Shown here: one piece after another, positions 7,647 through 28,284 of the stretch | How positions within the stretch are numbered: position 1 is the stretch's first letter | How the letters are laid out: each line of letters opens with the position of its first letter | Assembly (NCBI GenBank): GCA_052298855.1 | Contig: DAVZXP010000005.1 | Location: 109,253-173,252 of the forward strand | Length of the DNA: 64,000 nt | Reading direction: 5' to 3' | Origin: Candidatus Fimenecus sp. | Lineage (GTDB): Bacteria; Bacillota; Clostridia; Oscillospirales; Acutalibacteraceae | The notes under the pieces: model-generated | The model's database searches: none | What the model was told of the DNA's origin: nothing | What the model saw: the letters and a program-made list of their open reading frames with translations, nothing else | Made by a program: the position numbers and the translations under genes

Positions 7647-7672
7647 TCCGAAATCCTAACGGCACAATAGCT

Positions 7673-7712: not shown

Positions 7713-7735
7713 TGCTTTTTTGATTTATTATATTT

Positions 7736-13171: not shown

Positions 13172-13206
13172 AAAAGACCTCCCGTTATTAAAACGAGAGG
13201 TCTTTT
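13172..13206. terminator. bidirectional hairpin terminator
   Basis: aaaagacctc...gagaggtctttt, between the GNAT gene and the tRNA-Pro 3' fragment. Confidence 0.7.
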
Positions 13207-13250
13207 GGTCAGAGTGAGGTGACTCGAACACCCGGCATCTTGCTCCCAAA
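13206..13250 (-). pseudogene. 3' half of a tRNA-Pro(TGG) gene (anticodon loop to CCA), candidate attR side
   Basis: The reverse complement reads TTTGGGA-GCAAG-ATGCC-GGGTG-TTCGAGT-CACCT-CACTCTG-A-CCA. No D-arm or 5' acceptor strand lies upstream. Confidence 0.75.
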
Positions 13251-13612
13251 CGAACCTATGAAGACACTTTCCGCTAAAAATAGCTTTTTCTGCCCCTTTC
13301 CGCTCGGAAAACCGTGTTCTTCGGCGCTCCCCATTCCACTGTTTCCGAGTGCTCCGAAACGGTAGGTGGTCTGTTATGTGGTCAACAGCAATTTCCGCAG
13401 AATAATACACACTACACGCCTCTCGTTATCATGCGAGAGGCGATTGCTTTTTATACGGTTATTATAACTCTGAACAACCCCTGATTCAAGTCAAAATTTG
13501 CACCGCAGTAGACAAAGAAAAAGAGGATTACGAAAATGCTCGGAGAAAATAGAAAACCTGCAACAAAAAGTTGAGAAATAATGATATCGCAGTATTTTTA
13601 TGCCGAAAACAG

Positions 13613-13666
13613 TTGATGTTTGGCGAAGCATGTGGTATAATGAATTTCAGTGATACAATGCACTGA
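13613..13666 (+). promoter_or_regulatory. promoter plus inverted-repeat operator upstream of the island XRE gene
   Basis: TTGATG (13613-13618), a 17-nt spacer, then TATAAT (13636-13641). This is followed by TCAGTG-N8-CACTGA (13647-13666). Confidence 0.5.
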
Positions 13667-13693
13667 CAATAATTACTTATGAGGTGTAATACA

Positions 13694-13903
13694 ATGGCCG
13701 CAAGCTATAAAAAATTATTCAAGCTCTTAATCGACCGTGATATGAAAAAGAAAGAACTCGCCGAAAAAGCCGGCATCAGCATAGCCACCATCACCAAGAT
13801 GGGCAAAGACGGCGCAGTAGTCTCCAGTGATGTGCTTGTAAAGATATGTACTGCGCTTGAGTGCACAATGGACGATATTGTCGATATTGTTCCACAAAAA
13901 TAG
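13694..13903 (+). CDS. XRE-family HTH regulator (possible controller/C-protein of the downstream MTase operon)
   Basis: 69 aa with HTH ELAEKAGISIATITKMGKDG. GAGGTG RBS. Sits 104 nt upstream of the methyltransferase. Confidence 0.7.
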   Translation: MAASYKKLFKLLIDRDMKKKELAEKAGISIATITKMGKDGAVVSSDVLVKICTALECTMDDIVDIVPQK

Positions 13904-14006
13904 TAAAGCCCGTTTTATGGTACATACACGTCTGTATAATTATAATAGCATAACCATGCTTTATGGTGTTTGAAGCTAAATTTACTATGAGTTTGGAGAC
14001 AAATAA

Positions 14007-16115
14007 ATGGGCAACAAAAATACGAATCTTCAAGTAGCCAAAAGGGCGAAAGATGATGAATTCTATACTACATATGAAACCGTAGAGCAAGAAGTGTTGC
14101 ATTATGTAGATCAGTTTAAAAATAAAACAGTATTATGTAATTGCGACGATCCGTTTGAATCAAACTTCTGTAGATTTTTTCTAAGAAACTTTAATGTTCT
14201 AAAACTCAAAAGGTTGATTTGCACATCATATTATTCTTCAAAAGTAATTGCTACGAAGTTGAGCTTTGATAATCAAGTCAAAGATTCCTTTGATCGTAAA
14301 AATGGATATGTCCTTGATGTCACCAAGTTTTGCAATGATAATGCCGAGCTTTCAGATGAGTATATAACTAACTTCTTACTATCACATAAGGTCATTAAAA
14401 TGTTAAATGGGGATGGAGATTTCAGGAGTAGTGAATGCATTGAATATTTAAAAGAATCTGATATAGTAGTCACAAATCCACCGTTCTCACTATTCAAAGA
14501 AATTGTTTCAGAGATAATCAAATACGGAAAAAGTTTCTTGCTCATCGGCAACCAAAATGCATTGACTTATAAAGAGATATTTCCTCTGATTCAAAATAAC
14601 GAGGTATGGACAGGATATCAATTCGGAGAAATGAAATTCAGAGTACCTCAATCATCTGAACCTCGTGCCACACGCTACTGGGTAGATGAAACAGGGCAGA
14701 AATGGCGCAGCTTGGGGAATGCTATGTGGCTAACAAACTTGGATAATGATAGACGTCACGAAGAATTGCCTTTAACTAAAAAATACAGCCCACAAGATCA
14801 TCCTAAGTATGATACATACGATGCGATCCATGTAAAATCAATAACCGAGATTCCTTATGACTATGCAGGTGTTATGGGAGTTCCAATAACTATTGTAAAT
14901 AAGTATAACAGCGAACAGTTCGAGATTGTAGGTGAAGCAAATCACGGATCTGATAATGAGTTCGATTTATTTAAACCTACCATCAACGGAAAAGAAGTAT
15001 TCAAGAGAATCTTAATTCGCAACAAGAGGTTAATTAAAATGCCAACTAAAGAGTTTAGAATATTAGACCTATTCAGTGGTGCGGGTGGAATGTCTTATGG
15101 AATGGAAAAGAATGCACACTTTAAAACAGAAGTAGCACTGGATTATAATCCGCAGGCACTCGAAACATTCAAATATAATATGCCTAATGCAGAGGTTGTT
15201 ACGGGCGATATCACAGATGACAGGGTTAAAAAGCAGCTCATTGAACTGAGCAAAAAGCGAAAGGTCAATATGATAATTGGCGGTCCCCCGTGTCAAGGAT
15301 TCTCGCTAAAAGGCAAAAAGCTTGGATTAGATGATCCGAGGAACTTTCTGTTCAATGAATATCTCAACATTGTAAGTATATTAAATCCTGAGGTGTTCGT
15401 AATCGAAAATGTTAAGGCACTCCTGTCCACTTCCGCTGGATGGTTCAAAAATCAGATAATAGAGAAAGTTAGACGAATGGGATATCATGTGGAATACGGT
15501 GTGCTTACAGCTTCAGACTTTGGTGTTCCTCAGGCAAGACAAAGAGCGATTTTTATATGCTCTAAAAATAAACCCGTAACACTTCCGAAACCTACATGCC
15601 ATGAAATGGTAACAGTTAGAGATGCTATCTATGATTTGGCATACTTGAATTCTGGCGAGGGCGAATTCGAGCAAGATTATGTTACAGAGCCTACAAGTGA
15701 TTACCAAAAAGTAATGCGACAAGGTAGTAAGAAGCTGTATAACCACAAGGCATCTAACCATGCAGAAATAGCAATCAGAAAATTACAAATGATTCCGCCT
15801 GAATGCGGAAAAGAACATTTACCGCAAGAGTTGACAGGCAATCAACAGTTTAGCGGAACATGGGGAAGATTGAAATGGGATGCTGTTTCTCCCACGATAG
15901 ACACAAGATTTGATGCATCCTCAAACGGTACGAATAATCATCCATTCTTGCATAGAGCTATCACGCCTCGCGAAGCAGCGAGAATACAATCGTTTGATGA
16001 TAAGTTCGTATTTATCGGAGCAAAACTATATATTCGTCAACAAATCGGAAATGCAGTGCCTCCCCTTATGGCAAAGGCGATTGCAGATCAAATTTACGAC
16101 ATACTGAGTAAATAA
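14007..16115 (+). CDS. bifunctional DNA methyltransferase: N-terminal EcoRI-family N6-adenine MTase fused to a C-terminal C5-cytosine MTase
   Basis: N-terminal half has DDEFYT and VVTNPPFS. C-terminal half has LFSGAGG (I), GGPPCQGFS (IV), ENVKAL (VI), QARQRAIFI (VIII) and GNAVPP (X). An in-frame AAGAGG-N9-ATG (15039) sits at the domain junction. Confidence 0.88.
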   Translation: MGNKNTNLQVAKRAKDDEFYTTYETVEQEVLHYVDQFKNKTVLCNCDDPFESNFCRFFLRNFNVLKLKRLICTSYYSSKVIATKLSFDNQVKDSFDRKNGYVLDVTKFCNDNAELSDEYITNFLLSHKVIKMLNGDGDFRSSECIEYLKESDIVVTNPPFSLFKEIVSEIIKYGKSFLLIGNQNALTYKEIFPLIQNNEVWTGYQFGEMKFRVPQSSEPRATRYWVDETGQKWRSLGNAMWLTNLDNDRRHEELPLTKKYSPQDHPKYDTYDAIHVKSITEIPYDYAGVMGVPITIVNKYNSEQFEIVGEANHGSDNEFDLFKPTINGKEVFKRILIRNKRLIKMPTKEFRILDLFSGAGGMSYGMEKNAHFKTEVALDYNPQALETFKYNMPNAEVVTGDITDDRVKKQLIELSKKRKVNMIIGGPPCQGFSLKGKKLGLDDPRNFLFNEYLNIVSILNPEVFVIENVKALLSTSAGWFKNQIIEKVRRMGYHVEYGVLTASDFGVPQARQRAIFICSKNKPVTLPKPTCHEMVTVRDAIYDLAYLNSGEGEFEQDYVTEPTSDYQKVMRQGSKKLYNHKASNHAEIAIRKLQMIPPECGKEHLPQELTGNQQFSGTWGRLKWDAVSPTIDTRFDASSNGTNNHPFLHRAITPREAARIQSFDDKFVFIGAKLYIRQQIGNAVPPLMAKAIADQIYDILSK

Positions 16116-16141
16116 TTAACGGGAAGGATATAGGTGCAAAT

Positions 16142-17035
16142 ATGAATAACGAAATGGCATATTTGTTAGGAATGATAACAGGAAACGGTGCAGTTCAAAG
16201 AGGCCCTTCTGAAACCACCATTGTTATTGAGATTCCTCATAAAAAGTTAGAAACAGAGTTTAATAGAGATGTTGCTCTTTATGTAAAAGCAAGTATCACC
16301 GATATGAGGCAAGTGTTAGAGCCTGTATTAGGAACAAGCTTGGTGTTTAATCAAAATCCCAATGTTTCTTTTTTGTCGTTCAGAAAGAGAAACGAAGATT
16401 ACTTGATGAGAGAAATTATACGCTATATCGGCGGAGCTACGTCGGCGGATAATGTGAGAATCTCACCCGAAGTCTTTTCGTTTACGCTTGATGAAAGAAA
16501 ACAATTTATTCGTGGTTTTGCGGATGTAACTGGATACATTAGAAGAAGCAACTATTTCTTTGATAAAGAAGCTCACCGTGTTTATTTTGAAATTCCACAC
16601 AACTGGGGCTTGGTTGTCGATTTTTGTAACATGCTGAAAAGTGTGGATATTCCCGTGCAAAACATCGACTGGGCACATCCTAACATGAGAGATGGTAAGC
16701 TTGTAAAATACAATCAGGGAAACCATGATTTTTGGAAGAAAGAACATCAGGTTAAGGTTTGGGCAGTCGAATATGAGCCTATTGGTTTTGCAGTTATACA
16801 TAAGCAGGAGGCTTTGTCTGCTTTTGCTAATGAACATAGAGTTTGGTTGCAAGAACAAGGAAAGAATCCCGAAGATGTAACGCATAGATATTATTGGGAT
16901 TCAAATGGCAAGGTCAAGGCTAAACCTCGTCATCCTGGAGAAATGGATACATTCTTGCCTGCTGAAATCAGAGGCATACACTTTGATTCTTGGAAAGATA
17001 TTGCTAAAAAACTTGGATATAGCGAGGAGTCGTAA
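16142..17035 (+). CDS. hypothetical protein with two LAGLIDADG-like motifs (acidic residues substituted)
   Basis: YLLGMITGNG (aa 7-16) and FIRGFADVTG (aa 122-131) lie ~115 aa apart, and each is followed by beta-strand-like segments. The stop overlaps the next start (TAATG). Confidence 0.45.
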   Translation: MNNEMAYLLGMITGNGAVQRGPSETTIVIEIPHKKLETEFNRDVALYVKASITDMRQVLEPVLGTSLVFNQNPNVSFLSFRKRNEDYLMREIIRYIGGATSADNVRISPEVFSFTLDERKQFIRGFADVTGYIRRSNYFFDKEAHRVYFEIPHNWGLVVDFCNMLKSVDIPVQNIDWAHPNMRDGKLVKYNQGNHDFWKKEHQVKVWAVEYEPIGFAVIHKQEALSAFANEHRVWLQEQGKNPEDVTHRYYWDSNGKVKAKPRHPGEMDTFLPAEIRGIHFDSWKDIAKKLGYSEES

Positions 17036-17511
17036 TGTTAGAGGAAAAATTATATGAACCTATGAGAGCTTGGCTCGAACAGTATCTTCGCGATAAATAT
17101 AAAAATGCGGAGATTATAACTGTTGATTCACATAGTGAGAGATTAGATAGAGTACTAGCTAAGTATGATGTGGTAAACGAGATGGCCAATGATGTTGATA
17201 TTCAGATCGATGTGCTTGGCATTGTAAAACAACGAAATGCAGTTAAACTGTTTTTTATAGAAGCCAAAAAGACAAGGTTAACATTGCGAGATTTGGGACA
17301 ATTATGGGCTTATTGCAAATTAGTGGATCCCGAAGAAGCATTTTTGTTAACTTCATCTGATTTGGGAAGCTTGAATAAGCTGCTAAATAGCTTTGGTAGA
17401 GAAGATCTCCTTGATTTTGGCGAAGGGAAGAAAATCAAAAAGATGCGAGTGGGCAAATGGGATGTTGTGAAAAACAGCCCCGCCTATCACTCGCTTATCC
17501 CAAAGATATAA
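17035..17511 (+). CDS. PD-(D/E)xK nuclease-fold protein (restriction endonuclease-like)
   Basis: 158 aa with the pattern E8...D59 (IDVLG)...E76-A-K78 (FFIEAKK). Translationally coupled to the upstream ORF. Confidence 0.55.
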   Translation: MLEEKLYEPMRAWLEQYLRDKYKNAEIITVDSHSERLDRVLAKYDVVNEMANDVDIQIDVLGIVKQRNAVKLFFIEAKKTRLTLRDLGQLWAYCKLVDPEEAFLLTSSDLGSLNKLLNSFGREDLLDFGEGKKIKKMRVGKWDVVKNSPAYHSLIPKI

Positions 17512-17535
17512 TTGTTAATAAAAAGGAGAAAAACT

Positions 17536-18066
17536 ATGGACAATAACTATTGGAAAAACGCATATCAGAACACATGGGATGAATCATCTAAAAGAGAAAA
17601 TTTTATGGTTGACTGGATTAAAGACAACGCTGAGCTTACAGCAGAAATCATTGGGCTTGGTGCTGGTACAAGTGATTTTATAGATGGCAGTGCAAGTGAA
17701 AATGGGTATGAAAAAGGAGATGCGGATCTACATATCATTAATACAAACATATACATTGAAGTCACAGGCCCTTTAACAAAAAGTGTATCTGTAAATAGTG
17801 CTTTGTGGTTTAGACCCGACAAATTTGAAAATGCCATAAGAAACATGACAAACGGACATGACACATTCTTTGCTCATCACTGCCCATCAGGAGATTTGTG
17901 GCGAATAATACATATTGATGATAAACTTGCTCAAAGATATCAAAGACATGAATTTCGTATAGTCACACCTTGGATCAGAGGCCGTCAGGAAAGATATGTT
18001 GAAATACCAAGCAATGATCTTTGCATTAAATCGTTGGAGTATTTAAAAGATTATTTGATAGGATAA
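17536..18066 (+). CDS. hypothetical protein, possible second nuclease-like subunit
   Basis: AAGGAG RBS before ATG 17536. GDADLHII...IYIEVTGP loosely resembles a D...ExK core. Last gene of the MTase operon. Confidence 0.35.
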   Translation: MDNNYWKNAYQNTWDESSKRENFMVDWIKDNAELTAEIIGLGAGTSDFIDGSASENGYEKGDADLHIINTNIYIEVTGPLTKSVSVNSALWFRPDKFENAIRNMTNGHDTFFAHHCPSGDLWRIIHIDDKLAQRYQRHEFRIVTPWIRGRQERYVEIPSNDLCIKSLEYLKDYLIG

Positions 18067-18085
18067 ATATAAACGAGTGATTAAT

Positions 18086-18235
18086 ATGGCAATATTAGGC
18101 AAAATAGAAAGAATTGATGATTTAAGAACAATATGGCCTCATGAGGCAAGAGATTTTTTAAAATGTCTCGCACAGTAAGAAAACCTTTCTTTGTTGAGTG
18201 ACAATATAGGTATGGTAATTGATATTTTAAGGAGA
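18086..18235 (+). pseudogene. remnant of a DUF4268-type PD-(D/E)xK nuclease gene N-terminus with an in-frame stop
   Basis: MAILGKIERIDDLRTIWPHEARDFLKCLAQ-stop-ENLSLLSDNIGMVIDIL matches, from memory, the conserved N-terminus of that family. It breaks off after ~50 codons. Confidence 0.5.
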
Positions 18236-18241
18236 GAAGCA

Positions 18242-18532
18242 ATGAAAAAGTTTTTAGCTCAGTTTGAAGAATTTTGTCAAACACCCGGAATAGAATCAGG
18301 AAAGGCCCGCTCGTATGCAAATGCAATAGCATATCTGTGTGACTATTTAAACATCTCAACAATAGATGCAAAAACTATTAGCAATATAAGAAGTATAGAA
18401 AATGATGTCAACGATAAGAATAGTGCATTATATAAAGACCTATTATTGTTTTTGTCAAATCGAGGACAAAAATCATATTTAACCAAAGGGTATATAAAAG
18501 CCGCACTAAAATACTTCTTTAAGTTTGTGTGA
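18242..18532 (+). CDS. hypothetical small protein
   Basis: AAGGAGAG RBS, then ATG 18242; 96 aa with no recognised motif. May itself be a fragment. Confidence 0.35.
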   Translation: MKKFLAQFEEFCQTPGIESGKARSYANAIAYLCDYLNISTIDAKTISNIRSIENDVNDKNSALYKDLLLFLSNRGQKSYLTKGYIKAALKYFFKFV

Positions 18533-18537
18533 AATAT

Positions 18538-18930
18538 ATGGTCGAAGTAGTAGCTGCACTGATCTGGAACAAAGATGGATTCATGATCTGCCAACGACCT
18601 GCGCACAAAGCGAGAGGACTCTTATGGGAGTTTGTTGGCGGTAAAGTCGAGCCCGGTGAGACGAAAGAACAGGCGCTCATCCGTGAGTGTCAGGAAGAAC
18701 TTGCAGTAACGCTGTCTGTTGGAGATGTTTTTATGGATGTAGTCCACGAATATCCTGACTTGACGGTACATCTGACACTGTTCAATGCTACTATTACCAA
18801 TGGTGTTCTACAGAAGTTGGAGCACAACAGCATCAAATGGATTGCGCCATGCGAAATCCCAAACTACAAATTCTGTCCGGCGGATGTAGAGATATTGAAA
18901 AAGATAACAGAGGTTTTTCGTGATGATTAA
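18538..18930 (+). CDS. NUDIX hydrolase, MutT/NudG-like (d)NTP pyrophosphohydrolase
   Basis: Nudix box GGKVEPGETKEQALIRECQEELAV; ~130 aa. Confidence 0.85.
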   Translation: MVEVVAALIWNKDGFMICQRPAHKARGLLWEFVGGKVEPGETKEQALIRECQEELAVTLSVGDVFMDVVHEYPDLTVHLTLFNATITNGVLQKLEHNSIKWIAPCEIPNYKFCPADVEILKKITEVFRDD

Positions 18931-19333
18931 GAATTTGGTGCATGATCCGATATTTCTTGCTGGAAAGTCGGAGACTGCGACAAAAGAAGATTTGCAGATC
19001 GCACAGGATCTGATTGATACGTTGATCACGCACAGAGACAGCTGCGTTGGTATGGCGGCAAATATGATCGGTGTCAAGAAACGTATCATCGCTTTTCTTG
19101 ATGAAAGTGGACGAACGCCTACATATACAGTGATGCTAAATCCGGAGGTTATTAAAAAAGACGGAGCTTATAACACTGAGGAGGGATGCCTTTCACAACT
19201 TTATGGTCATCGTAAATGCAAGTGCTATCAGACTATCAAAGTACAGTGGAAACGGCTGAATTTCAAACTCGTATCAAAACATTTATCGTCTGGTCCGCAC
19301 AAATTATCCAGCACTAAATTAATCATTGAATGA
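18920..19333 (+). pseudogene. def: peptide deformylase, decayed (frameshift, and HExxH destroyed)
   Basis: Motif 1 GMAANMIG and motif 2 EGCLS are present. After about 19250 the conserved C-terminus continues in another frame as ETAEFQTRIKTFIVWSAQIIQH-stop-INH-stop, so the Glu of HEIDH is a TAA codon. Confidence 0.6.
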
Positions 19334-19373
19334 AATATTAATATAAGCGAATTTATACTAAAGGAAATTCTTT

Positions 19374-20363
19374 ATGATAGAGTATACAGAAAACGAAAAA
19401 CAGTTAAATGGATATGATTTTATAGATTTGTTTTGTGGCATAGGTGGATTTCATTTAGCCTTGTCATCTTTGGGTGCTAACTGCGTATTTGCATCAGATA
19501 TTGATAAAGAAGCATGTAAGGTATATGAAACAAATTTTGGATTAAAGCCACATGGTGATATTACAAAAATAGCAGAAGAAAAAATACCCAAGCACGATAT
19601 TCTTTGTGCTGGTTTCCCTTGCCAACCTTTTAGTATTTCGGGAAATCAGCAAGGATTTGATGATGAGCAAGGGAGAGGGAAGTTGTTTTTCGACATCGTA
19701 AGAATTGCCAAATATCACAAACCTAAAGTGTTGATATTAGAAAATGTGAAGAATTTCGAAAAACACGATGGTGGAAAAACTATTAAAAGGGTAGAAAAAG
19801 AACTTAATGATATAGGATATACATTTTTTTCTGAAGTACTATGTGCATCAGATTTTGATGTGCCTCAACAGCGCAAAAGAATATATATAGTAGCATTTCG
19901 AAATGACTTGAATATTGATACATTTGAGTTCCCACAGGGGCTCAACAAATTTAAAGTATTGAAGGATGTTTTGATAACTAAAGCAGAAAACAAAATCAAA
20001 GGTAATTACTATATCGATAGAGAATACACAATTAAAAGTAACCCAAAACGAAAAGAGAATAAATTGATTAGAATTGGCGAGATAGGTCTGGGTCGCCAGG
20101 GAGAAAGAATTTATTCAATTAACGGTCAAGCCACAACGTTATCTTCACAAGGTGGAGGCTTGGGCGGAAAAACAGGACTGTATTTGATTCGAAAAAAAGT
20201 GCGCAAGCTATTTCCACGTGAATGTGCACGGGTAATGGGTTTTCCGGATAGTTTTAAATTGTCACATAGTCAGGAACAAAACTATAAGCAATTTGGAAAC
20301 AGTGTAGTTGTTGATGTTATTCAAGCTATAGTAAAAGAAGTTATTAAAAAAATCGAGGGATAA
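19374..20363 (+). CDS. DNA (cytosine-5)-methyltransferase
   Basis: Motifs LFCGIGG (I), GFPCQPFS (IV), ENVKNF (VI), QQRKRIYIV (VIII) and FGNSVVV (X). Confidence 0.93.
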   Translation: MIEYTENEKQLNGYDFIDLFCGIGGFHLALSSLGANCVFASDIDKEACKVYETNFGLKPHGDITKIAEEKIPKHDILCAGFPCQPFSISGNQQGFDDEQGRGKLFFDIVRIAKYHKPKVLILENVKNFEKHDGGKTIKRVEKELNDIGYTFFSEVLCASDFDVPQQRKRIYIVAFRNDLNIDTFEFPQGLNKFKVLKDVLITKAENKIKGNYYIDREYTIKSNPKRKENKLIRIGEIGLGRQGERIYSINGQATTLSSQGGGLGGKTGLYLIRKKVRKLFPRECARVMGFPDSFKLSHSQEQNYKQFGNSVVVDVIQAIVKEVIKKIEG

Positions 20364-20366
20364 ATT

Positions 20367-22493
20367 ATGGGAAGTAAAGCTTCGTTTAAATTAGCATATT
20401 CAGCGTTGAAAATGTTTGGAAAGCAACTTTATTCCAATGTCGGTGCCGCTATATCTGAGTTGGTTGCTAACGGGTTTGATGCCGGTGCTGATGATGTCTA
20501 TGTTGTAATAGATGCAAGAAACAAATCTGCTGCTACGGTAGAAATTTTAGACAATGGGTCAGGAATGTCTCCAGAACATATTGAAGAGAATTATGTAAAA
20601 ATTGGATATAACAAAAGAGAACATGAAAAAAATGCTGACACTGCTATGGGTCGAAAAGGAATAGGAAAATTGGCAGCTCTTTATATGTCAAATAAGTTTA
20701 TATTAGTTTCTAAGACGAAAAAAGACAAATGTTCTTCATGGGAATTGGATGTTACGAAAATCAAAAATGACGATGATGCGCCTGATTTGGTGCAAATAAC
20801 GGATGTAAATTTACAGCAATCACAATGCTTTGATATTTGGAATTCTCAAAAAACAGGGACTTTTATATATCTTGAAAATGTGGATTTAAGAGGGTTCGGT
20901 CAAAGAGGATTAGAGTCGATTCGCAAGAGATTATCAAACTATTTCTTGTTGGACGAACTTCGAAAAAATATTTATATTATGGTAATCCTTGATGATGAGA
21001 CTCCACGCGAATTCGTTAAAGTTGAGAAACAAATAGCCTTTAAGAATATGGTATGTATTTATGCATCTGATACAAGTCGTTTTGAAGATCTTAAAAGTAA
21101 TATATTTTCGATAGAGTATACCAACAAACTTAAACAAATTAAAGAATACGAGGAAACAACTACAATAAAAGAACTCGAATCAGCTAAAGATAATTTTAAT
21201 ATTTCTGGTGAGATTACCGTTGACGGTATAACAAAAAAGTACGTTTTATCGGGTTGGGTTGGAGTCCATTGCACAATTGATGAGGATAAAGCCAAAAAGA
21301 ATGACGATGCATATTTTAAAAGTACTTTTTATAATCCTAATCAGTTAAGGTTATACGTAAGAAACAAATTGGCAGTTGCTAATATGAGAGAATATCTTGG
21401 TATTAAGCAGGCCTTCGCAAACTATATCGAAGGTGAGGTTTCATTTGATATTCTTGATGACAATGATATGCCCGACATTGCAACGGCGGGACGGCAAGAC
21501 TACGACACTGCGGATCCGCGCTTTTTAAAATTATGTGAATTACTAAAAGTTATAGGCGATAGCCTTGTGAGGAGTAGACAAGCCTTAGCGGATAAACTAA
21601 AAGATGAAAGAAATGCGAGTGATATGAAAATCTCTACCGCCGCAAAGAAAAACTTTGCGGTTGGTTTTGCTCAGGCAGTGCATAGATTACCTATCACACA
21701 AGCAGACAAAAGCGAATTAATTAACACAACAGTAAATCAGTTAGAGGGAGATGTAGAAGCCAAGGGACAATATACTGTGTTTATTTCTCATTCCAGTCAA
21801 GATAAATTTCTATCGGATTTCTTTTATCACTATTTGGTAAAAAGAGGCTTCAATGGTGATATGAAAGACTTGGATAATTGTGAAGTTTTTTATTCAAGTG
21901 CCGGAATGGATAAAGCTTCTATGGAGAGTTTGGCGAGCACAATTAGAGATTTCTTAATTGCTAAAGATAACGATGTGCTTATGGTTACTTCCTCAGGGTA
22001 TAAAGACAGTGAGTTTTGTATGTTTGAGGGTGGTGCAGTATGGGCAACTAAAGCTGATAAACATAGATTGATTGCCATCGATTATGATACTATACCAAGT
22101 TTTTTGAAGAATGGTAGTCCAGAGATATGTTTTAGTGATACAGATAAAAACAGTTACCAGTTTAACGAGCAATTGTATGAAGATATATTAGCTGTGTTGA
22201 CACGTATAATGATTCATCTTAATCAAAATAGGATTGTAAGAGGAGAAAAGGAAATATCTATTCCTGAGAGACCAAACTTTCCAGACAAAGTTGAGCTCAA
22301 AAAGACAGGAAAGACTATTAAAGATTATATGGATCCTCTGATATTAGAATACTGGGATACCTATGTGTTGGATCAGGTTGATGATTACATAAATTACCGT
22401 GCAGGAAAAAAACTTTTGCAGAAAAAGCTTGAAGAAACAGAAAGGGAGTTTTGGGAAGAGTATAAATCCAAAAAGTTAGCTTTGGCTGAATAA
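20367..22493 (+). CDS. GHKL (HATPase_c_3, MORC/MutL-like) ATPase fused to a C-terminal TIR-like domain
   Basis: Bergerat-fold boxes ELVANGFDAGA, DNGSGM and GRKGIGKLA at the N-terminus. C-terminal region (~aa 470-620) reads VFISHSSQDK...VFYSS...VLMVTSS...SEFCMFEGG. The ATG lies 3 nt after the MTase stop. Confidence 0.7.
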   Translation: MGSKASFKLAYSALKMFGKQLYSNVGAAISELVANGFDAGADDVYVVIDARNKSAATVEILDNGSGMSPEHIEENYVKIGYNKREHEKNADTAMGRKGIGKLAALYMSNKFILVSKTKKDKCSSWELDVTKIKNDDDAPDLVQITDVNLQQSQCFDIWNSQKTGTFIYLENVDLRGFGQRGLESIRKRLSNYFLLDELRKNIYIMVILDDETPREFVKVEKQIAFKNMVCIYASDTSRFEDLKSNIFSIEYTNKLKQIKEYEETTTIKELESAKDNFNISGEITVDGITKKYVLSGWVGVHCTIDEDKAKKNDDAYFKSTFYNPNQLRLYVRNKLAVANMREYLGIKQAFANYIEGEVSFDILDDNDMPDIATAGRQDYDTADPRFLKLCELLKVIGDSLVRSRQALADKLKDERNASDMKISTAAKKNFAVGFAQAVHRLPITQADKSELINTTVNQLEGDVEAKGQYTVFISHSSQDKFLSDFFYHYLVKRGFNGDMKDLDNCEVFYSSAGMDKASMESLASTIRDFLIAKDNDVLMVTSSGYKDSEFCMFEGGAVWATKADKHRLIAIDYDTIPSFLKNGSPEICFSDTDKNSYQFNEQLYEDILAVLTRIMIHLNQNRIVRGEKEISIPERPNFPDKVELKKTGKTIKDYMDPLILEYWDTYVLDQVDDYINYRAGKKLLQKKLEETEREFWEEYKSKKLALAE

Positions 22494-22566
22494 AGATTTT
22501 AGCAAAATTCTCTGGACTTTCGCAAACCTTTGTGGTACTGTTGTGTACTGCAAAGGAGGTGCGGAT

Positions 22567-22830
22567 ATGGCACAGATGAGTTTAGAAGAATTGTACCGCG
22601 GAGAAGGTGCGGGAGAAAAGTACAGTATCTTGGGAAAAGTTATGAAAGACTTCCTCCAAAATGGGCGTCCGTCGGAATACGACGAGCGTACTTGGCTTGA
22701 AATGCTGCTTGTCAAGCACGCGCTGATTGCGGCAGAGAAAATGAAAAGTGAGGGCGACACGGTGTCGGGTATGACCGATAGCGTGCCGCCCTCTTCCTAT
22801 GTGAGGTGGAATGAGCATGACAACACTTGA
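22567..22830 (+). CDS. hypothetical small protein (mobile-element associated)
   Basis: AAGGAGG RBS before ATG 22567. Overlaps the next ORF by 20 nt. Confidence 0.45.
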   Translation: MAQMSLEELYRGEGAGEKYSILGKVMKDFLQNGRPSEYDERTWLEMLLVKHALIAAEKMKSEGDTVSGMTDSVPPSSYVRWNEHDNT

Positions 22831-23092
22831 AGATCTGTATTACGGAAATATCGCTCCGCACGAACACAGTTTTAAGCGCGGGAGTGCTTACAGCGAAGTG
22901 TTGAGCTATGTTATTCGGCATCAGGACAGCTTGATACCGACGCTCACGGTTCAGCAGAAAGAAGTCTTTGAAAAGCTCAAAGACTGCGAGGTGGAACTGC
23001 ACGGTATGAATGAGCGCGAAGCGTTTATCAGCGGCTTTAAGCTTGCGGCGAGAATCATGACCGAAGTGTTGTACGAGCCGTCAGAGAATTGA
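22811..23092 (+). CDS. hypothetical small protein (mobile-element associated)
   Basis: GAGGTGG RBS; 93 aa. Followed by a hairpin at about 23106-23135. Confidence 0.45.
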   Translation: MSMTTLEDLYYGNIAPHEHSFKRGSAYSEVLSYVIRHQDSLIPTLTVQQKEVFEKLKDCEVELHGMNEREAFISGFKLAARIMTEVLYEPSEN

Positions 23093-23238
23093 ATTTGCAG
23101 AAACAAGGCCGAGCCGATTTCGCGGTTTGGCCTTGCGATTTTCAGTTCGACACAGCACGGTTAAAATCTGCACCGCAGAAAACAAAGAAAACAGTATTCC
23201 CGCAAAAGCGCCGAAATATACACTGTTGGCGCAAAAAC

Positions 23239-23267
23239 TTGACAGAATTTTTCCGGTATGTTATACT
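23239..23267 (+). promoter_or_regulatory. sigma-A-type promoter of the xis-rep-int module
   Basis: TTGACA (23239-23244), a 17-nt spacer, then TATACT (23262-23267). Confidence 0.6.
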
Positions 23268-23452
23268 GCAAGTAAATAAAGCAACCGACAATTGAATACA
23301 CATATTTCTGTTTTGAGTTTCAGACTCGCACTTACATAATCACCGATGCAGATCAGCATCGGGATTGAGTGCGGGTCTTTTTGTTTTGCAAAACAGCAGT
23401 CCTCTACATAACACGGCGAAAAACCGTGTGAATTTAACAGGAGGAAAAACCA

Positions 23453-24099: not shown

Positions 24100-24372
24100 C
24101 GGCAGTTTTACGGCTCGTCCGAAAACAAGCAGGAGAAAGCCGAGGGGTTGCACGGCAATCCCTCGGCGGCTCACAGCGGACGGCAACGCCGACCGCATAA
24201 GGCTTTGTGCGGCTTTTAAGAACGGTTATAAAAGCCTCAATTTAGGGGTTGCGGCGATAAAAACCTCGCTGATTTAGGGGTTGCGAATTTTACCGCAAAT
24301 TTAGCTGGATATTCCGCCATGTATGTGGTATTGTGTGTTCGGCTGGTGAGAGCCCTGCTAGGAGGTGATACC

Positions 24373-25548
24373 ATGGCAAAACGAAGACCGTCGAGAGACG
24401 GTATGGTGCGCAAGCGCGAAGACGGAAGATGGGAAGGCCGCATCGTTGTCGGTCACAAAAAGAACGGCGATCCGATTCACCGCTATGTGCTTGCCCGAAC
24501 ACAAAAGGAGTTAATCGTAAAGCTCCACGACTGCATCGAGATGTACCGCGATGCCGACCTCACCGAGGATTCGAATATGACGCTCGGCGAATGGCTCGAC
24601 CGATGGATCAATGAATATATGATCTTCACGATTCGTGAAAGCACGCTTGATTCTTACAAAGCGATGATTAAAAATCAAATCAAACCGTATCTCGGCGACA
24701 GACCTTTGTCGGCGCTGACCACGCAGGAGCTTCAAAAATTCTATAACACCGTCAAAAAGAAAGGTCGTGTGAAACCGGACAAGCTGCACGGCACAGAGCT
24801 TGCCGACAGCATGGTGCGCGGTATTCATATGATGCTGCACGAAGCACTCGATATGGCGGTGCGCCTACGGCTGATTGTTAAAAATCCAACGGTCGGCACA
24901 ACGATTCCCAAAAACAATTATCCGCCGAAGCAGATACTCAATGACGAACAGCTTGACAGATTTATGAAACGCATTAGGCAGGATGAGCGGTGGTACGATT
25001 TCTTCTACACCGAGCTGACCACAGGACTGCGGCGGGGTGAAATCTGCGGACTGAAGTGGGAGGACTTCGATGCGGAAAACGGAAAGCTGAAAGTGAGGCG
25101 CTCGGTTGCTAAAAGGAAAGGCGGCGGATTGAATATCGGCGAAACCAAAACCGAGACGGGAACGCGCACGATCGTCCTGCCGCCGAGCACTGCGGAACTT
25201 CTGCGGAAGCGAAAAGAAACGGCAGTCAGCGAATGGATATTCCCGAATATCTATGAGCCCGAAAAACCGATGCACCCCGACTATGCTTACCACCGATTAA
25301 AAACACTGTTAAAACAGGCGGAGCTTCCGCTGATTCGGTTCCACGATCTGCGCCACACCTTCGCCACTCACGCGCTGGCAGGCGGTGTGGATGCGAAAAC
25401 CCTGTCGGGAATTCTCGGGCATACCAACGCCAGCTTTACGCTGGACACCTACACCCATGTGACCACCGATATGCAGAGAAACGCTTCCGCTATCGTGGGG
25501 AGCTTTATGGATGAGATTATGCTTGAAGGAGATGATACCAATCGCTAA
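24373..25548 (+). CDS. tyrosine recombinase / phage-type integrase 1
   Basis: N-terminal AP2-like arm-binding motif (REDGRWEGRIVVG). Catalytic region has GLRRGE, HDLRHTFAT, LGH and the conserved Tyr in LDTYTHV. GGAGG RBS. Confidence 0.9.
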   Translation: MAKRRPSRDGMVRKREDGRWEGRIVVGHKKNGDPIHRYVLARTQKELIVKLHDCIEMYRDADLTEDSNMTLGEWLDRWINEYMIFTIRESTLDSYKAMIKNQIKPYLGDRPLSALTTQELQKFYNTVKKKGRVKPDKLHGTELADSMVRGIHMMLHEALDMAVRLRLIVKNPTVGTTIPKNNYPPKQILNDEQLDRFMKRIRQDERWYDFFYTELTTGLRRGEICGLKWEDFDAENGKLKVRRSVAKRKGGGLNIGETKTETGTRTIVLPPSTAELLRKRKETAVSEWIFPNIYEPEKPMHPDYAYHRLKTLLKQAELPLIRFHDLRHTFATHALAGGVDAKTLSGILGHTNASFTLDTYTHVTTDMQRNASAIVGSFMDEIMLEGDDTNR

Positions 25549-26962
25549 AAAAAGAAAAAATGGTGAGGGCACATTACGCCTGCGAAAAGACGGGCGGTGG
25601 GAAGGAAGAATTGTTGTCGGGTACAATGAGAAAAGCCTGCCTATTACAAAATGCGTAACGGCGAAAACAAAAACAGAATGTTCCACTAAGCTCGAAGCGC
25701 TGAAAGAACAGTACGGACGCTCTTCCGATAAAATTAAACCGGATATGCCGTTCGGGGATTGGATCGACTTCTGGTATCAGACATACTGCCGACACACACT
25801 CCGCATTACCACAAGAACCGACTACGAAAACCGCATTTACAATCATATCATTCCCGAAATCGGAAAAATTCCGCTGAACAGGCTGTCACAGTCGGATTTA
25901 CAGCAATTCTACGCAAAGGAAAAGACAGACGGAAGAAAACTGCACGCAAAAACCTACGGAAAGGGCCTTTCGGACAGAACGATAAGGGGGATACATGCCA
26001 ACTGCCGCACTGCTTTACAGCGGGCGGTGCAGGAGGGCTTAATTCGCACCAATCCCGCCGTCGGCTGTAAGCTGCCACCGAAGAAAGCACGGGAGATGCA
26101 GGTGCTCACGCAAAATGAAATTATCCGATTTCTGCATCAGGCAAAGGAAGAGGGATATTATGAGCTTTTTCTGCTGGAGCTCGGCACGGGAATGCGGCGC
26201 GGTGAAATATTGGCGCTCAAATGGAGCGACCTCAACTTCGCAACAGGAGAGCTTCGCATTGAACGGCAGGTATATATCATCAAGGCAGAGGTGATTATAT
26301 CAGCGCCGAAAACAAAAGCCTCGATACGCACCGTTATTCTGCCACCGTCACTCTTGAAAACCCTTGTGGCGTATAAGGAAACGGTGGATTCGGAATGGAT
26401 GTTTCCGTCACCGACGAATAACGGCAGACCGAGAAATCCGTCATCGGTTAGAAAACGGTTACAACTGATCTTGGAACGGGCGGGCTGTAAAAAGGTGCGC
26501 TTTCACGATCTGCGGCACACCTTTGCGACCATGGCGCTGGAGCACGGTATGGATGTGAAAACGCTCTCAGCAACTATAGGCCATGTGTCCTCGGCAACCA
26601 CGCTGGATATTTACAGCCATATCACCGATACTATGCAAAGGCAGGCGGCGGTGCATATCGACCGCAAAATCGGCGGTACAGACGCCCAAATGCCGACGGC
26701 TCAGCCGTCGGCAAGGAAAGATACCGTCCCAATCGAATTCACGCCGTACAAGCCGAAAATACGCAAACCCGGGACGGGCTGTGTCACGATGATAAACGAC
26801 CACCTGTATGAGGGACGGTACACTCCGACCAACGCCTACGGCAAGCGGGAAAGCCACAATATCTACGCGAAAACGCGCGAGGAATGCGAAGAAAAGCTCG
26901 CGGAAATGATTGTGCAGGTCAAGGCGCAAATCAAGGCGGAAAAAGAGAAAATGACAGGGTGA
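25511..26962 (+). CDS. tyrosine recombinase / phage-type integrase 2 with an extra C-terminal AP2-like segment
   Basis: RKDGRWEGRIVVG at the N-terminus. Catalytic region has GMRRGE, HDLRHTFAT, IGH and the conserved Tyr in LDIYSHI. The C-terminal ~90 aa repeat the arm-binding-like pattern (YEGRYTP...GKRESHNIYAKTREECEEKL). Overlaps int1 by 38 nt; the start is uncertain. Confidence 0.88.
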   Translation: MRLCLKEMIPIAKKRKNGEGTLRLRKDGRWEGRIVVGYNEKSLPITKCVTAKTKTECSTKLEALKEQYGRSSDKIKPDMPFGDWIDFWYQTYCRHTLRITTRTDYENRIYNHIIPEIGKIPLNRLSQSDLQQFYAKEKTDGRKLHAKTYGKGLSDRTIRGIHANCRTALQRAVQEGLIRTNPAVGCKLPPKKAREMQVLTQNEIIRFLHQAKEEGYYELFLLELGTGMRRGEILALKWSDLNFATGELRIERQVYIIKAEVIISAPKTKASIRTVILPPSLLKTLVAYKETVDSEWMFPSPTNNGRPRNPSSVRKRLQLILERAGCKKVRFHDLRHTFATMALEHGMDVKTLSATIGHVSSATTLDIYSHITDTMQRQAAVHIDRKIGGTDAQMPTAQPSARKDTVPIEFTPYKPKIRKPGTGCVTMINDHLYEGRYTPTNAYGKRESHNIYAKTREECEEKLAEMIVQVKAQIKAEKEKMTG

Positions 26963-27013
26963 CCGAAAAAGTCACTCTGTCAAAATTTGCGTCGCTGTAA
27001 ACAAAGAAAAGTC

Positions 27014-27652
27014 TTACCTGCGATATCCGTTTTTCTGGCACATTTCATTTATTGATTCTGCAAAAATCGAACGGGAGTGTTTATCAGGGTTATCATTGCA
27101 GTTTTTCTTGTATATGTAATAATCCTGCAACTCGCCCCAAAGGTTCTCCCTTTTTAACCAATCCATTTTCTTTTCTAATCCTACAAAACCCTTCCCCTGA
27201 TATTCCCAATAATAATAATTGTTATCTTTGTTGAACCGAATATACTGTTGTCTGCCATCAGTGCAGTTATACACTATTGCAAAATCACAGCTATGAATAA
27301 TGCGAGAATGAGAAGTGTCAACCTTTTTAATCGTAAGAACGCGAGTGGAATCCTCGCAAGATTTATATCCATAGCGAGGTGCAACACGGTCGATAGCAGT
27401 ACGTATTATTGTCCGTATTTCTTTAGGTTCAAAATCCTCATTATCGTCATTGACCTCGATGTTAATATCGAAGTCAAAACCGATGTTAGATTTTGCATCG
27501 TAGGTTATCATGTTACGGCTTGAACTGCCAATCGGTGTGAAGCTAAAAGTGAAATTGTCACGCACCAAATCCTGTACCATGTAAAGAATTTGATATAGCT
27601 CATCTTTTATAGGCTGAGCTTGTTTTTTGGTTACATACCTAAAGTCATGCAT
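27014..27652 (-). CDS. Pol-beta-fold nucleotidyltransferase with an OAS/CD-NTase-like signature
   Basis: N-terminal helix, then IGSSSRNMITYDAKSNIGFDFDINI (GSS...DxD), and a later acidic strand, SCDFAIVY. 212 aa with no adjacent partner gene. Confidence 0.5.
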   Translation of the reverse strand: MHDFRYVTKKQAQPIKDELYQILYMVQDLVRDNFTFSFTPIGSSSRNMITYDAKSNIGFDFDINIEVNDDNEDFEPKEIRTIIRTAIDRVAPRYGYKSCEDSTRVLTIKKVDTSHSRIIHSCDFAIVYNCTDGRQQYIRFNKDNNYYYWEYQGKGFVGLEKKMDWLKRENLWGELQDYYIYKKNCNDNPDKHSRSIFAESINEMCQKNGYRR

Positions 27653-27846
27653 TATGGTTTCTCCTTAAGATTATCTCCCTAACCGACCATCTAACCTGGG
27701 TTAAATCGTTACATTATACTACAATAATATCATTTGTCAAGGATTATTTCTGGGGGTTATCTTTTGCTAATTTTATCTGATTATTATACTCTCAACCTAA
27801 CAAAATTTGTATCGCAATAGACAGAGAAAAAGGCTGGAACGGTATG

Positions 27847-27882
27847 AAAAATCCTCTGAGACGCTCGGTTTCAGAGGACTTT
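27847..27882 (-). terminator. terminator downstream of the island tRNA-Pro
   Basis: Hairpin tcctctga/tcagagga followed by T5 on the minus strand. Confidence 0.7.
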
Positions 27883-27958
27883 TGGTCGGAGTGGCGAGGC
27901 TCAAACTCGCGGCCTCCGCATCCCAAATGCGGCGCGCTATCAACTGCGCTACACCCCG
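27883..27958 (-). tRNA. tRNA-Pro (anticodon TGG), intact, CCA encoded
   Basis: 76 nt: CGGGGTG-TA-GCGC-AGTTGATA-GCGC-G-CCGCA-TTTGGGA-TGCGG-AGGCC-GCGAG-TTTGAGC-CTCGC-CACTCCG-A-CCA. All four stems pair. Confidence 0.9.
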
Positions 27959-28084
27959 ATAGTTATTAAATTGTGGTCGTGTAGGTGGTCAAATCTGTGG
28001 TCAAACACATTTTTGACTGCTTTTTTTCATTTTCCGAACCGCCCGAAATACGCACGGTTGAAGGATTTTCGGCGGTTTTCGCTT

Positions 28085-28148
28085 TCGTGCGGTGCGAACA
28101 CCGTCTATGCTCCCAAAGCAAGCGCGCTACCAACTGCGCTACACCCCA
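28085..28148 (-). pseudogene. 5' half of tRNA-Pro(TGG) followed by a degenerate 3' part, candidate attL side
   Basis: The reverse complement reads TGGGGTG-TA-GCGC-AGTTGGTA-GCGC-G-CTTGC-TTTGGGA-GCA. It then diverges (TAGACGGTGTTCGCACCGCACGAAAGC) with no valid T-arm or acceptor strand. Confidence 0.7.
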
Positions 28149-28284
28149 AAATATTGATTTTTCAAGTTTTTATATGCTTGTAAGTTTATATAAATCAGTC
28201 CGCTGTGTTTTACTTCTTTCAGCATACCGATAGATTATACAATAACGCAAATGAAATGTCAATAACAAGTACAAGCTTGACAGA

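Follow-up and report, generated by a model that had tools for sequence, protein, structure and literature searches.

The attP of Haemophilus phage HP1 carries tRNA-operon sequence, an intact tRNA complement is present once the phage has integrated, and the split tRNA is rebuilt precisely via long identity with the host. Canonical tRNA/tmRNA islands (Islander-type, PMC4383910) use a tyrosine integrase and cross over in the anticodon loop of a tRNA gene, which is regenerated from the island's own 3' part; the integrase genes are found beside the tRNA, and a displaced tRNA fragment at the far end. A third arrangement, tRNA-dependent lysogeny, was described in the actinobacteriophages Fionnbharth/K4, Cluster L, Gaia and Gordonia CQ2/DL (Guerrero-Bustamante & Hatfull, mBio 2024, PMC10865867). 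Here, a tyrosine integrase acts on an attB that overlaps a tRNA gene of the host, and arm-type sites lie on either side of a core that is only ~8-17 bp long, too short to give back a functional tRNA at attL. The Lj965 prophage of Lactobacillus johnsonii is named in the same paper as a possible non-actinobacterial case and, as far as that citation goes, reportedly rebuilds no tRNA and encodes the cognate tRNA.

In this study, we analyzed a window (the whole stretch of DNA, 64,000 nucleotides) from a gut Clostridial lineage (Oscillospirales-type MAG), in which a 14.9-kb non-phage island very probably splits the host tRNA-Pro(UGG) gene in its loop and brings a whole tRNA-Pro(UGG) as a replacement. 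This principle has already been described under the name tRNA-dependent lysogeny (PMC10865867), and the tyrosine integrase, the attB within a host tRNA gene, the short core, the unrestored gene at attL and candidate arm-type sites all recur at this locus, as judged from the sequence alone. What is new is the non-phage nature of the island, an att-linked tRNA without a promoter call, paired integrases and arrays. First, the element is a 14.9-kb restriction-modification/defence island rather than a phage, and its host is a gut Clostridial rather than an actinobacterial one. Second, its target is tRNA-Pro, with a core of exactly the 7-nt anticodon loop. Third, it has two tandem paralogous integrases, and its family enters more than 20 host alleles and forms serial arrays in which the preceding element's tRNA is split. 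As in HP1, the attachment region holds more than a tRNA fragment, whereas it shares only 7 nt with the host and the split gene stays broken. The layout resembles that of Islander-type islands (PMC4383910) in its integrase, crossover position and displaced fragment, but the window island supplies a whole gene and regenerates nothing from a 3' part of its own. Lj965 is likewise from Firmicutes, but is a prophage and, in the account that cites it, a single case (PMC10865867).

The split host tRNA-Pro gene and its empty site

The original prediction described two halves of a tRNA-Pro gene on the minus strand, and all of its coordinates and sequences match the window: the 5' half runs from 28148 to 28108 (TGGGGTGTAGCGCAGTTGGTAGCGCGCTTGCTTTGGGAGCA) and the 3' half from 13250 to 13206 (TTTGGGAGCAAGATGCCGGGTGTTCGAGTCACCTCACTCTGACCA). 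Thus, attL (28108..28148, minus strand) comprises positions 1-38 of the host tRNA-Pro(UGG) gene plus GCA, with a derived T at position 1, and attR (13206..13250, minus strand) comprises the core and then the host 3' half, positions 32-76, with a derived T at position 71. The 10-mer said to be shared by both junctions, TGCTCCCAAA, has exactly two copies in the window (13241-13250 and 28108-28117), against 0.07 expected by chance; at least two matches were obtained in 0 of 100 shuffles. When the halves were joined over the core, ARAGORN called the 76-nt product as tRNA-Pro(tgg), while default settings gave no tRNA at either unjoined junction (attL, attR). The acceptor-stem wobbles described at pairs 1-72, 2-71 and 4-69 are all present in the joined tRNA, and G4-U69 is usual in this tRNA family (20 of 21 alleles). 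A 43-nt core spanning the junction of the joined halves was uninterrupted in 31 related species, and in 29 of these the tRNA differed from the joined halves by two mismatches only (74/76 identical). By these comparisons, the joined sequence lies far beyond chance.

Analysis of related genomes revealed the predicted empty site. One related species (L041) has GNAT, an uninterrupted tRNA-Pro and TM2 in that order, that is, the opposite of adjacent fragments with no intact gene, and it is collinear over the junction with the window from which the island had been removed in silico (1,347 nt, 82% identity). It also keeps the host promoter and terminator of the window. The promoter, TTGACA-17-TATAAT (28234..28262, minus strand), matches the consensus at 12/12 positions and now faces the orphan 5' half and, further on, the island tRNA; the terminator (13172..13206, minus strand) serves both the tRNA-Pro gene and GNAT, which converges on it, with the same layout in L041 and L028. 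No conspecific empty site emerged when the flanking GNAT and TM2 proteins were looked up by exact match; each informative contig contained the window island, a variant island in the case of L011 or, in L006, a different insertion.

Three further loci in other hosts (L046, L049 and L130), with other alleles, have attL and attR halves that join into valid tRNAs, and TTTGGGA is the sole stretch common to host gene and island there. Given the metagenome-assembled source, and with some contigs ending near the tRNA (L003), the juxtaposition might be ascribed to an assembly or binning artefact; however, identical attL/attR junctions were present in independent ENA, NCBI and Logan assemblies of different samples, and the architecture recurs at ~90 other loci, which makes an artefact almost inconceivable.

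Attachment core and island arms

The common core measures 10 bp in the window; across hosts it is 7 bp (TTTGGGA). Comparison of these junctions shows that the true core is the 7-nt anticodon loop, which forms the crossover region within attL (28111-28117, minus strand), and that the additional GCA is a coincidence of the window host's allele. Integration took place within the loop TTTGGGA.

The island P' arm (27959..28110, minus strand) is conserved in other hosts. Its core-proximal part, arm A (GCATAGACGGTGTTCGCACCG; 28090-28110, minus strand), is a truncated relic of a tRNA T-arm, and it aligned locally to the host T-arm better than shuffled sequences did (P=0.0026). The host 5' half plus this arm scored 23.6 bits with the Rfam tRNA model (threshold, 29). 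The arm had been described as a decayed imitation of the 3' half; the tRNA resemblance stands, but decay peculiar to this locus was rejected, because other hosts keep the arm and a second arm variant bears no likeness to a tRNA. As in tRNA-dependent lysogeny (PMC10865867), gene-restoring close relatives are implied, with arm A as the decayed 3' half. In 32 of 37 distinct host/island combinations, a chimera of host 5' and island 3' parts would lose one stem pair or more, and in the window's own combination it would lose three. The arm by the core encodes no usable 3' half, and the host gene therefore remains two orphan halves.

The P' arm also contains a conserved hairpin (28037-28077) and three GTGGTC(A/G) repeats with 12 bp spacing (27973-28003), which are candidate arm-type integrase sites. 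At the other end, the island P arm (13251..13400, minus strand) shares its left end with L011 and with the attP-like junctions found in L047 and L055, and includes a conserved motif (TTTCCGAGCGGAAAGGGGC; 13292-13310) and two GTGGTC repeats (13366-13372 and 13378-13384). Window-wide, these repeats show no enrichment (11 versus 7.4 expected), and their candidacy as arm-type sites is based on clustering at both att sites and conservation, not on statistics.

The island-borne tRNA-Pro

An intact tRNA-Pro(tgg) inside the island was confirmed on the minus strand at 27883..27958 by both ARAGORN and the Rfam tRNA model (62.5 bits). It lies 149 nt inward of attL and 159 nt from the loop start, in the same orientation as the broken gene, and a terminator hairpin is found past it (27852..27878, minus strand). 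This tRNA is the commonest cargo allele of the family (38 loci) and a different allele from the orphan halves and the L041 gene. A consensus scan of 27959..28110 called neither promoter nor terminator on the sense strand, and promoters were called in only 2 of 68 family spacers. Judging by these scans, in which no terminator was called, the island tRNA would be expressed from the host promoter: once integrated, it would sit behind the host tRNA promoter or operon and take over decoding. A non-consensus promoter of its own, overlapping the GACCAC repeats, is possible. In Fionnbharth, by contrast, the phage tRNA is located elsewhere in the genome and its promoter was demonstrated (PMC10865867), whereas the tRNA of the window is part of the att module, co-oriented with the broken gene at this short distance from attL and with no promoter of its own called.

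An intact tRNA followed by integrase genes is also the usual layout of a tRNA island. The gene at 27883-27958 could then be the regenerated host gene of a canonical tRNA-restoring island, with the outer fragments as older relics, and in L017 a complete tRNA adjoins Int2 with non-arm sequence upstream, of which only 36 nt are visible. However, the 149 nt upstream of the intact tRNA are conserved island DNA in unrelated hosts, and the host promoter precedes the orphan 5' half rather than the intact gene. In addition, the orphan halves fit each other and the relatives' empty-site gene, while the intact tRNA is another allele. We therefore consider a restored host gene highly improbable. The central reading of the original prediction, namely anticodon-loop integration that leaves the host gene unrestored and supplies its own tRNA-Pro(UGG), is supported by L041, by the three other hosts, and by the survey of junctions and the match of cargo and target anticodons below.

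Conservation of the design and need for the island tRNA

Among 96 junctions drawn from human-gut metagenomes and IMG/VR, 90 had a host 5' half, TTTGGGA, an island arm and then a complete tRNA-Pro, with a modal distance of 159 nt; the downstream tRNA was absent at the other six. The junctions had 29 distinct left sides, more than 20 of which were tRNA-Pro 5' halves, and L019 and L026 show the window's architecture in other hosts. Nested and tandem arrays were also observed, in which islands or prophages split the preceding element's tRNA. Hundreds of gut Clostridial islands, along with some prophages, retain this design. Carrying a whole tRNA would free the element from the need for a matching host allele, with the conserved anticodon loop being sufficient, and such a loop-only requirement would explain the invasion of more than 20 tRNA-Pro alleles. 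Each integration would also set down a new target site, and elements would therefore stack in arrays.

The cloverleaf of the island tRNAs is kept (99.8% of cells paired), with compensatory changes in 13 of 21 pairs. All sampled elements splitting UGG genes carry tRNA-Pro(UGG), and two CGG-splitting elements of a sister lineage carry tRNA-Pro(CGG) or its one-base variant AGG. This match of anticodons could partly stem from tRNA capture at the target locus, not from selection for complementation.

The island copy would be dispensable in a host with a further tRNA-Pro(UGG). In that case, both split and island would be real but the island tRNA unneeded, being a by-product of capture, a portable landing pad or an anti-defence tRNA. 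Several observations point in this direction: island tRNAs frequently serve as attB for later islands and phages, cargo alleles are native alleles elsewhere (L019 and L026 carry the window's host allele as cargo, and the host gene split in L046 is nearly identical to the window's cargo allele), and the family member L149 has a mutated anticodon (C34->A). However, an unneeded tRNA does not readily account for intact cloverleaves in 90 of the 96 junction-linked copies, which persist across Int2 divergence down to 63%, or for a cargo anticodon that follows the target anticodon in both lineages. Moreover, the split gene is often the sole tRNA-Pro(UGG) visible in a tRNA operon context (e.g. Gly-Arg-His-Gln-[Pro]), the decay of both orphan halves suggests that the function has moved elsewhere, and phage tRNAs of this type were experimentally required (PMC10865867). 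A dispensable island tRNA thus seems unlikely, though less so than the other alternatives, and replacement of the split gene is the preferred reading.

Orphan-half changes and excision

It had also been proposed that island loss and tRNA supply are interdependent. Such interdependence is not intrinsic, because precise excision would rejoin the halves, but it may be emerging in this lineage. Two derived C->T changes, at positions 1 and 71, are distributed one per orphan half and occur in 0 of the 31 related species; both T1 and T71 were present in all island-bearing conspecific contigs and absent from L006 and L011. The orphan halves of the window lineage thus seem to be starting to decay (C1->T, C71->T), and excision would therefore no longer yield a wild-type gene. 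Upon excision, the predicted attB is GCGCGCTTGCTTTGGGAGCAAGATGCC and the predicted attP is CATAGGTTCGTTTGGGAGCATAGACGG.

No excised circular form was found among three candidates. MT839022.1, a 4.6-kb faecal-virome record with 98% identity to Int2, is an integrated nested fragment with no terminal repeat, and the attP-like junctions of L047 and L055 lie inside long contigs and were read as tandem islands. A plasmid search with the att-integrase module gave 0 matches.

Implications for tRNA-Pro evolution in gut Clostridia

Integration dependent on a carried tRNA, experimentally shown only in actinobacteriophages, now appears to extend to prophages and non-phage defence islands of Clostridia that are abundant in the human gut. 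The suggested payoff is that one whole-gene element may enter many tRNA-Pro alleles, whereas a canonical restoring attP would give mis-paired chimeras. tRNA-Pro genes of these gut Clostridia can thus be foreign replacements. Such islands would be overlooked or wrongly mapped by methods that look for a restored tRNA together with a displaced 3' piece of identical sequence. The attP-Int-tRNA cassette could become a broad-host-range integration tool for gut anaerobes that are hard to engineer.

A broader proposal, which we offer tentatively and with somewhat more doubt than belief, is that the attP core, the 150-nt arm and the complete tRNA-Pro form a landing pad that renews itself and drives the replacement of an essential tRNA by horizontal transfer across gut Clostridia. 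If this were true, each insertion would kill the resident tRNA-Pro and place a foreign allele behind the host promoter as the next attB, arrays would grow by leapfrogging, and taxa would exchange host tRNA-Pro alleles. The replacement gene, which has no promoter call of its own, would therefore be expressed only upon correct integration, and orphan-half decay would turn a reversible insertion into addiction. Of the paired integrases, one may deal with the conserved loop and the other with the variable stems.

Gene content and classification of the island

The island, 14.9 kb long and located inside the host tRNA-Pro(UGG) gene, contains a low-GC cargo block (13679..23295, plus strand) that begins with a Cro/CI-type HTH gene (13679-13903). 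It is followed on the same strand by a fused EcoRI-like N6A and C5 methyltransferase (14007-16115), four ORFs without assigned function (16142-18532), a NUDIX protein (PADLOC PDC-S07; 18529-18930), a peptide-deformylase-like protein (18920-19333), a C5 methyltransferase (19374-20363), a BbrUII/HgiDII-like GHKL restriction enzyme (20367-22493), an unannotated ORF (22543-22830), DUF6809 (22811-23092) and a small ORF (23089-23295). On the opposite strand, a 212-aa ORF (27014..27652, minus strand) is variable cargo, with its own consensus promoter (27740->27713) and only ~9 family loci. Pfam, NCBIfam and PHROGs scans detected no capsid, terminase, tail or lysis genes among the island ORFs, and domain scans detected no relaxase or T4SS domains, seven ORFs having no family match. 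Its gene content classifies the element as a non-phage integrative island with restriction-modification/defence cargo. Prophages are found among the relatives that have this att/tRNA design; the mechanism is therefore shared, and the member in the window is an island.

The integration module lies between the cargo block and the island tRNA. Int2 (25511..26962, plus strand) is a 483-aa tyrosine recombinase with Pfam Phage_integrase and SAM_3 domains and the catalytic residues RRGE...HDLRHTFA...GH...Y. Int1 (24319..25548, plus strand; likely start 24373, 391 aa as called in L001) is a second tyrosine recombinase, likewise with a Phage_integrase domain and catalytic motifs, and a paralogue of Int2 (41% identical), and the two genes overlap by 38 nt. 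NCBIfam gave XerC/D-like matches that were sub-threshold only, and Int1 and Int2 are therefore left without a named subfamily. Upstream of both are genes for an Xis-like HTH_17 protein (23453-23662, plus strand) and an HTH_36, Rep/DnaD-N-like winged-helix protein (23629-24099, plus strand), which accompany Int1/Int2 in 66 loci. Close relatives of Int2 were found in more than 540 metagenomic stretches.

Split tRNA-Pro gene and empty site

The window sequence bore out the original prediction of two tRNA-Pro halves sharing an exact 10-mer. On the minus strand, 28148→28108 (attL) reads as a clean tRNA 5' half ending with the anticodon loop and GCA, and 13250→13206 (attR) starts with TTTGGGAGCA, as the attL half ends, and then reads through a tRNA 3' half as far as CCA. 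The plus-strand 10-mer TGCTCCCAAA occurs in the window only at 13241-13250 and 28108-28117 (0.07 expected). With default settings, ARAGORN found no tRNA at either junction by itself, and the halves joined over the core gave a 76-nt product that it called tRNA-Pro(tgg), as anticipated. The intact tRNA-Pro(TGG) expected inside the insert is present at 27883-27958(-) (Rfam, 62.5 bits). The observation was thus confirmed, and its interpretation is supported with the refinements described below.

A 43-nt pattern spanning the junction was found without interruption in the genomes of 31 species (Oscillospiraceae, Acutalibacteraceae and Ruminococcaceae-type MAGs), in 29 of which the whole tRNA equals the joined halves save two positions. 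All 31 species have C1 and C71, whereas the window has T1 and T71. The original prediction also implied that relatives should carry an empty site, at which the GNAT gene, an uninterrupted tRNA-Pro and the TM2 gene follow one another. Such a site was found in contig CAKSAP010000001.1 (L041), whose GNAT and TM2 proteins, in that order around an intact tRNA-Pro, are 94% and 80% identical to those of the window at the amino acid level. When 13251-28117 was removed from the window in silico, the remainder was collinear with L041 over 1,347 nt (82% identity), straight through the junction, and the intact gene of L041 is flanked by the window's TTGACA-17-TATAAT promoter, leader and common terminator. 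A Ca. Fimenecus sp. (Clostridia) locus, L028, has the GNAT, tRNA and terminator side in common with the window. Judged from these comparisons, what the island has split is a genuine gene of the host.

Family-wide architecture

Scanning metagenomes for Int2, one of the two tyrosine recombinases of the island, revealed more than 540 stretches with a close relative, mainly from human gut, of which 80 were kept; IMG/VR added 25. The element family is abundant in the human gut. The kept metagenome and IMG/VR loci contained 96 junctions of the form [left side]-TTTGGGA-GCATAGAC…, and a complete tRNA-Pro followed at 90 of them, most commonly at 159 nt from the loop start. There were 29 distinct left sides, more than 20 of which were different tRNA-Pro 5' halves, and the host 5' half was identical to that of the island tRNA in just 7 of the 90 cases. 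In two other species (L019 and L026), TTTGGGA is likewise the point at which a host tRNA-Pro 5' half of different sequence is cut, downstream of a consensus host promoter; the arm (GCATAGAC[G/A]GTGTTC…), hairpin and GACCAC repeats of the window follow, and beyond them lie a complete tRNA-Pro and Int2/Int1, the latter with 92-97% nucleotide identity to those of the window.

At three loci with attR also in reach (L046, L049 and L130), the attL 5' and attR 3' halves together gave an ARAGORN tRNA-Pro(tgg), each of another allele, and TTTGGGA was the sole sequence shared by host and island. Strand exchange must therefore take place inside the anticodon loop; the core reaches 10 bp in the window because the stem of this host happens to begin with GCA. 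Xis, HTH_36, Int1 and Int2 co-occurred in 66 loci. On these sequence comparisons, the architecture is a trait of the family and not an accident of the window locus.

The island tRNA as a probable replacement gene

Several features support the island tRNA as a functional replacement, beginning with its almost constant linkage to the junctions (90 of 96). Among 21 distinct island-linked alleles, the cloverleaf was kept in 99.8% of pair cells, and compensatory double changes were present in 13 of 21 pairs, far above shuffled and slid controls. In a sister lineage (L118 and L149; Int2 89% and 63% identical, respectively), a host tRNA-Pro(CGG) is split in the loop TTCGGGA. The cargo of L118 is tRNA-Pro(CGG) and that of L149 a C34→A derivative; the anticodon of the cargo thus tracks that of the target. 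The cargo tRNA of L149, a distant family member (2466-2542; target tRNA-Pro(CGG)), has the anticodon AGG in an otherwise perfect cloverleaf, a sign of decay or else of an uncommon tRNA-Pro with A34. A few island-borne tRNAs look damaged; at one locus, a copy of the commonest cargo allele reads TGGGGTG… and has C1→T, as in the orphan half of the window.

A consensus host promoter lies upstream of the orphan half in the window (28262→28234). Between it and the island tRNA, neither sense-strand terminators nor promoter-like sites were called, and just 2 of 68 spacers across the family had a promoter-like site. It is therefore plausible that the island tRNA is expressed by read-through, starting at the host promoter or in the tRNA operon.

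When every distinct host 5' half was paired with the 3' half of the resident island tRNA (37 combinations), 32 of the chimeras lost one or more pairs of the acceptor or anticodon stem and 29 lost two or more, with three lost in the window. In most of the hosts that the family occupies, an attP of the canonical restoring kind would therefore not work, and the selective rationale of the design may be that a complete tRNA cassette needs only an invariant anticodon loop.

Origin and interdependence

Arm A, the island sequence beside the core at attL (28090-28110), resembles the T-arm of a CTTGC-type allele (GGTGTTCG---CACC.CAC; P=0.0026 versus shuffles), and the 5' half plus arm A scored 23.6 bits against the Rfam model for tRNA, short of the 29-bit threshold. 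This fits an ancestor with a canonical restoring attP whose 3' half would have decayed after gain of a whole tRNA, one scenario discussed for actinobacteriophages (PMC10865867). A second arm variant (GCATAGACGGCATTTCTGACG…) had no T-arm relic in the same comparison. The cargo alleles look as if they were captured from hosts: the native allele of the window serves as cargo in L019 and L026 and also lies beside Int2 in another locus (L017), and a single base separates the cargo allele of the window from the native gene that is split in L046.

The interdependence of island loss and tRNA supply proposed in the original prediction was only partly upheld. Precise excision would re-join the halves, and dependence on the island is therefore not mechanistically built in; the re-joined window gene would have U1·G72 and G2·U71. 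On the other hand, T1 and T71 are common to all island-bearing conspecific contigs; the conspecific strain L011, with a variant island, has C71, and another, L006, has C1. As the sequence does not otherwise vary across the family, these two derived changes suggest that constraint on the orphan halves was relaxed in the window lineage.

Island contents and relation to tRNA-dependent lysogeny

Base composition of the island is bipartite: the cargo (~14-22 kb) has 35-37% GC and the recombination module (23-27 kb) ~50%, against a host background of ~43%. The cargo encodes a Cro/CI-type HTH protein, a fused EcoRI-like N6A and C5 methyltransferase, a NUDIX protein (PADLOC PDC-S07), a peptide-deformylase-like protein, a C5 methyltransferase and a BbrUII/HgiDII-like GHKL restriction enzyme (GHKL-ATPase; 20367-22493, +). 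Between the two methyltransferase genes lie four consecutive ORFs (16142-18532, +; 297, 158, 184 and 113 aa) with no matches in Pfam, NCBIfam, PADLOC or PHROGs. The C-terminal region of the GHKL protein had weak SpbK/TIR-like matches (PADLOC spbK 2.7e-10; Pfam TIR_2 0.004); in this protein, a restriction module may be fused to an abortive-infection-type domain. The recombination module comprises DUF6809, an excisionase-like HTH_17 protein, an HTH_36 protein like the N-terminal domain of replication initiators, and the overlapping Int1 and Int2 genes, whose products share 41% identity and each retain RRGE…HDLRHTFA…GH…Y. Between Int2 and the tRNA, a 212-aa ORF (27014-27652, -) with a perfect consensus promoter (27740→27713) had no matches in Pfam, NCBIfam, PHROGs or PADLOC and is variable cargo, present in only ~9 family loci; by eye, its GSS…D.D stretch is reminiscent of nucleotidyltransferase folds. 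Neither phage structural or lysis genes nor a relaxase were detected in the island gene content, and we therefore read the insert as a non-phage integrative island.

In the tRNA-dependent lysogeny of actinobacteriophages, a tyrosine integrase uses an attB in a tRNA gene with an 8-17-bp core, the tRNA is not reconstructed, and the cognate phage tRNA is required for viable lysogens; occurrence beyond actinobacteriophages was suggested, citing prophage Lj965 (PMC10865867). At the sequence level, the island shares with this system a tyrosine integrase with attB in a tRNA gene, a short core without reconstruction of the tRNA, and a cognate tRNA of its own; unlike the actinobacteriophages, it is not a phage. 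The principle is already published, and the island is a variant of it. In contrast with actinobacteriophages, the island tRNA sits in the att cassette with no promoter call of its own, the family core is exactly the anticodon loop, two paired integrases are present, and family members enter many host alleles and stack in arrays. Among the papers found to use the term tRNA-dependent lysogeny, none dealt with gut Clostridia or with non-phage islands, and other literature searches gave no further precedent.

Arrays and other elements at tRNA-Pro

At several loci, among them L057, L091, L046, L129 and L148, island repeats precede an island tRNA that has itself been split by the next element. Two loci (L047 and L055) have P-arm-core-P'-arm junctions typical of tandem copies; for the second, tandem tRNA copy in L055 (20862-20937), ARAGORN gave a 4-nt anticodon, and this copy looks damaged. 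In 18 loci (L083, L089, L121 and L125-L145), a prophage end lies ~320 nt upstream of the island junction, with a holin-like membrane protein gene, then …TTTGCGG|TTTGGGA|GCGTAGACGG…, an arm of its own, bearing a promoter, and a tRNA-Pro later split by the island. As these prophage ends have their own core, arm and tRNA-Pro, phages use the same att/tRNA design.

Other junction kinds were also observed. In L006 (810-963, with the TM2-promoter flank of the window) and, upstream of an Int2-linked tRNA, in L062, L072 and L114, the tRNA is broken after 19 nt (CGGGGTGTAGCGCAGTTGG) and followed by a conserved ~130 nt (GCGAAG…GCGACTATGTTT.TGAGGGAAGCG), a duplicated host leader and a complete tRNA-Pro, as if an element coming from the other side had replaced the gene wholly or in its 5' part. 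In L086, L104 and L116 (tRNA-sense ~7400-7950), tRNA-Pro is split at TTTGGG|CAAAAAACG by yet another type of element, with a ~190-nt spacer unrelated to the window-family arm before a complete tRNA-Pro; in L104, the unit of 5' half and spacer occurs twice in tandem. Finally, in L011 (620-1340), whose island end is a sequence variant of that of the window, the GNAT terminator is separated from the tRNA 3' half by ~650 bp that have TTTGG at both bounds and contain another GNAT gene (193 aa, opposite strand); this DNA may be left over from an element that had inserted at the 3' end of the tRNA.
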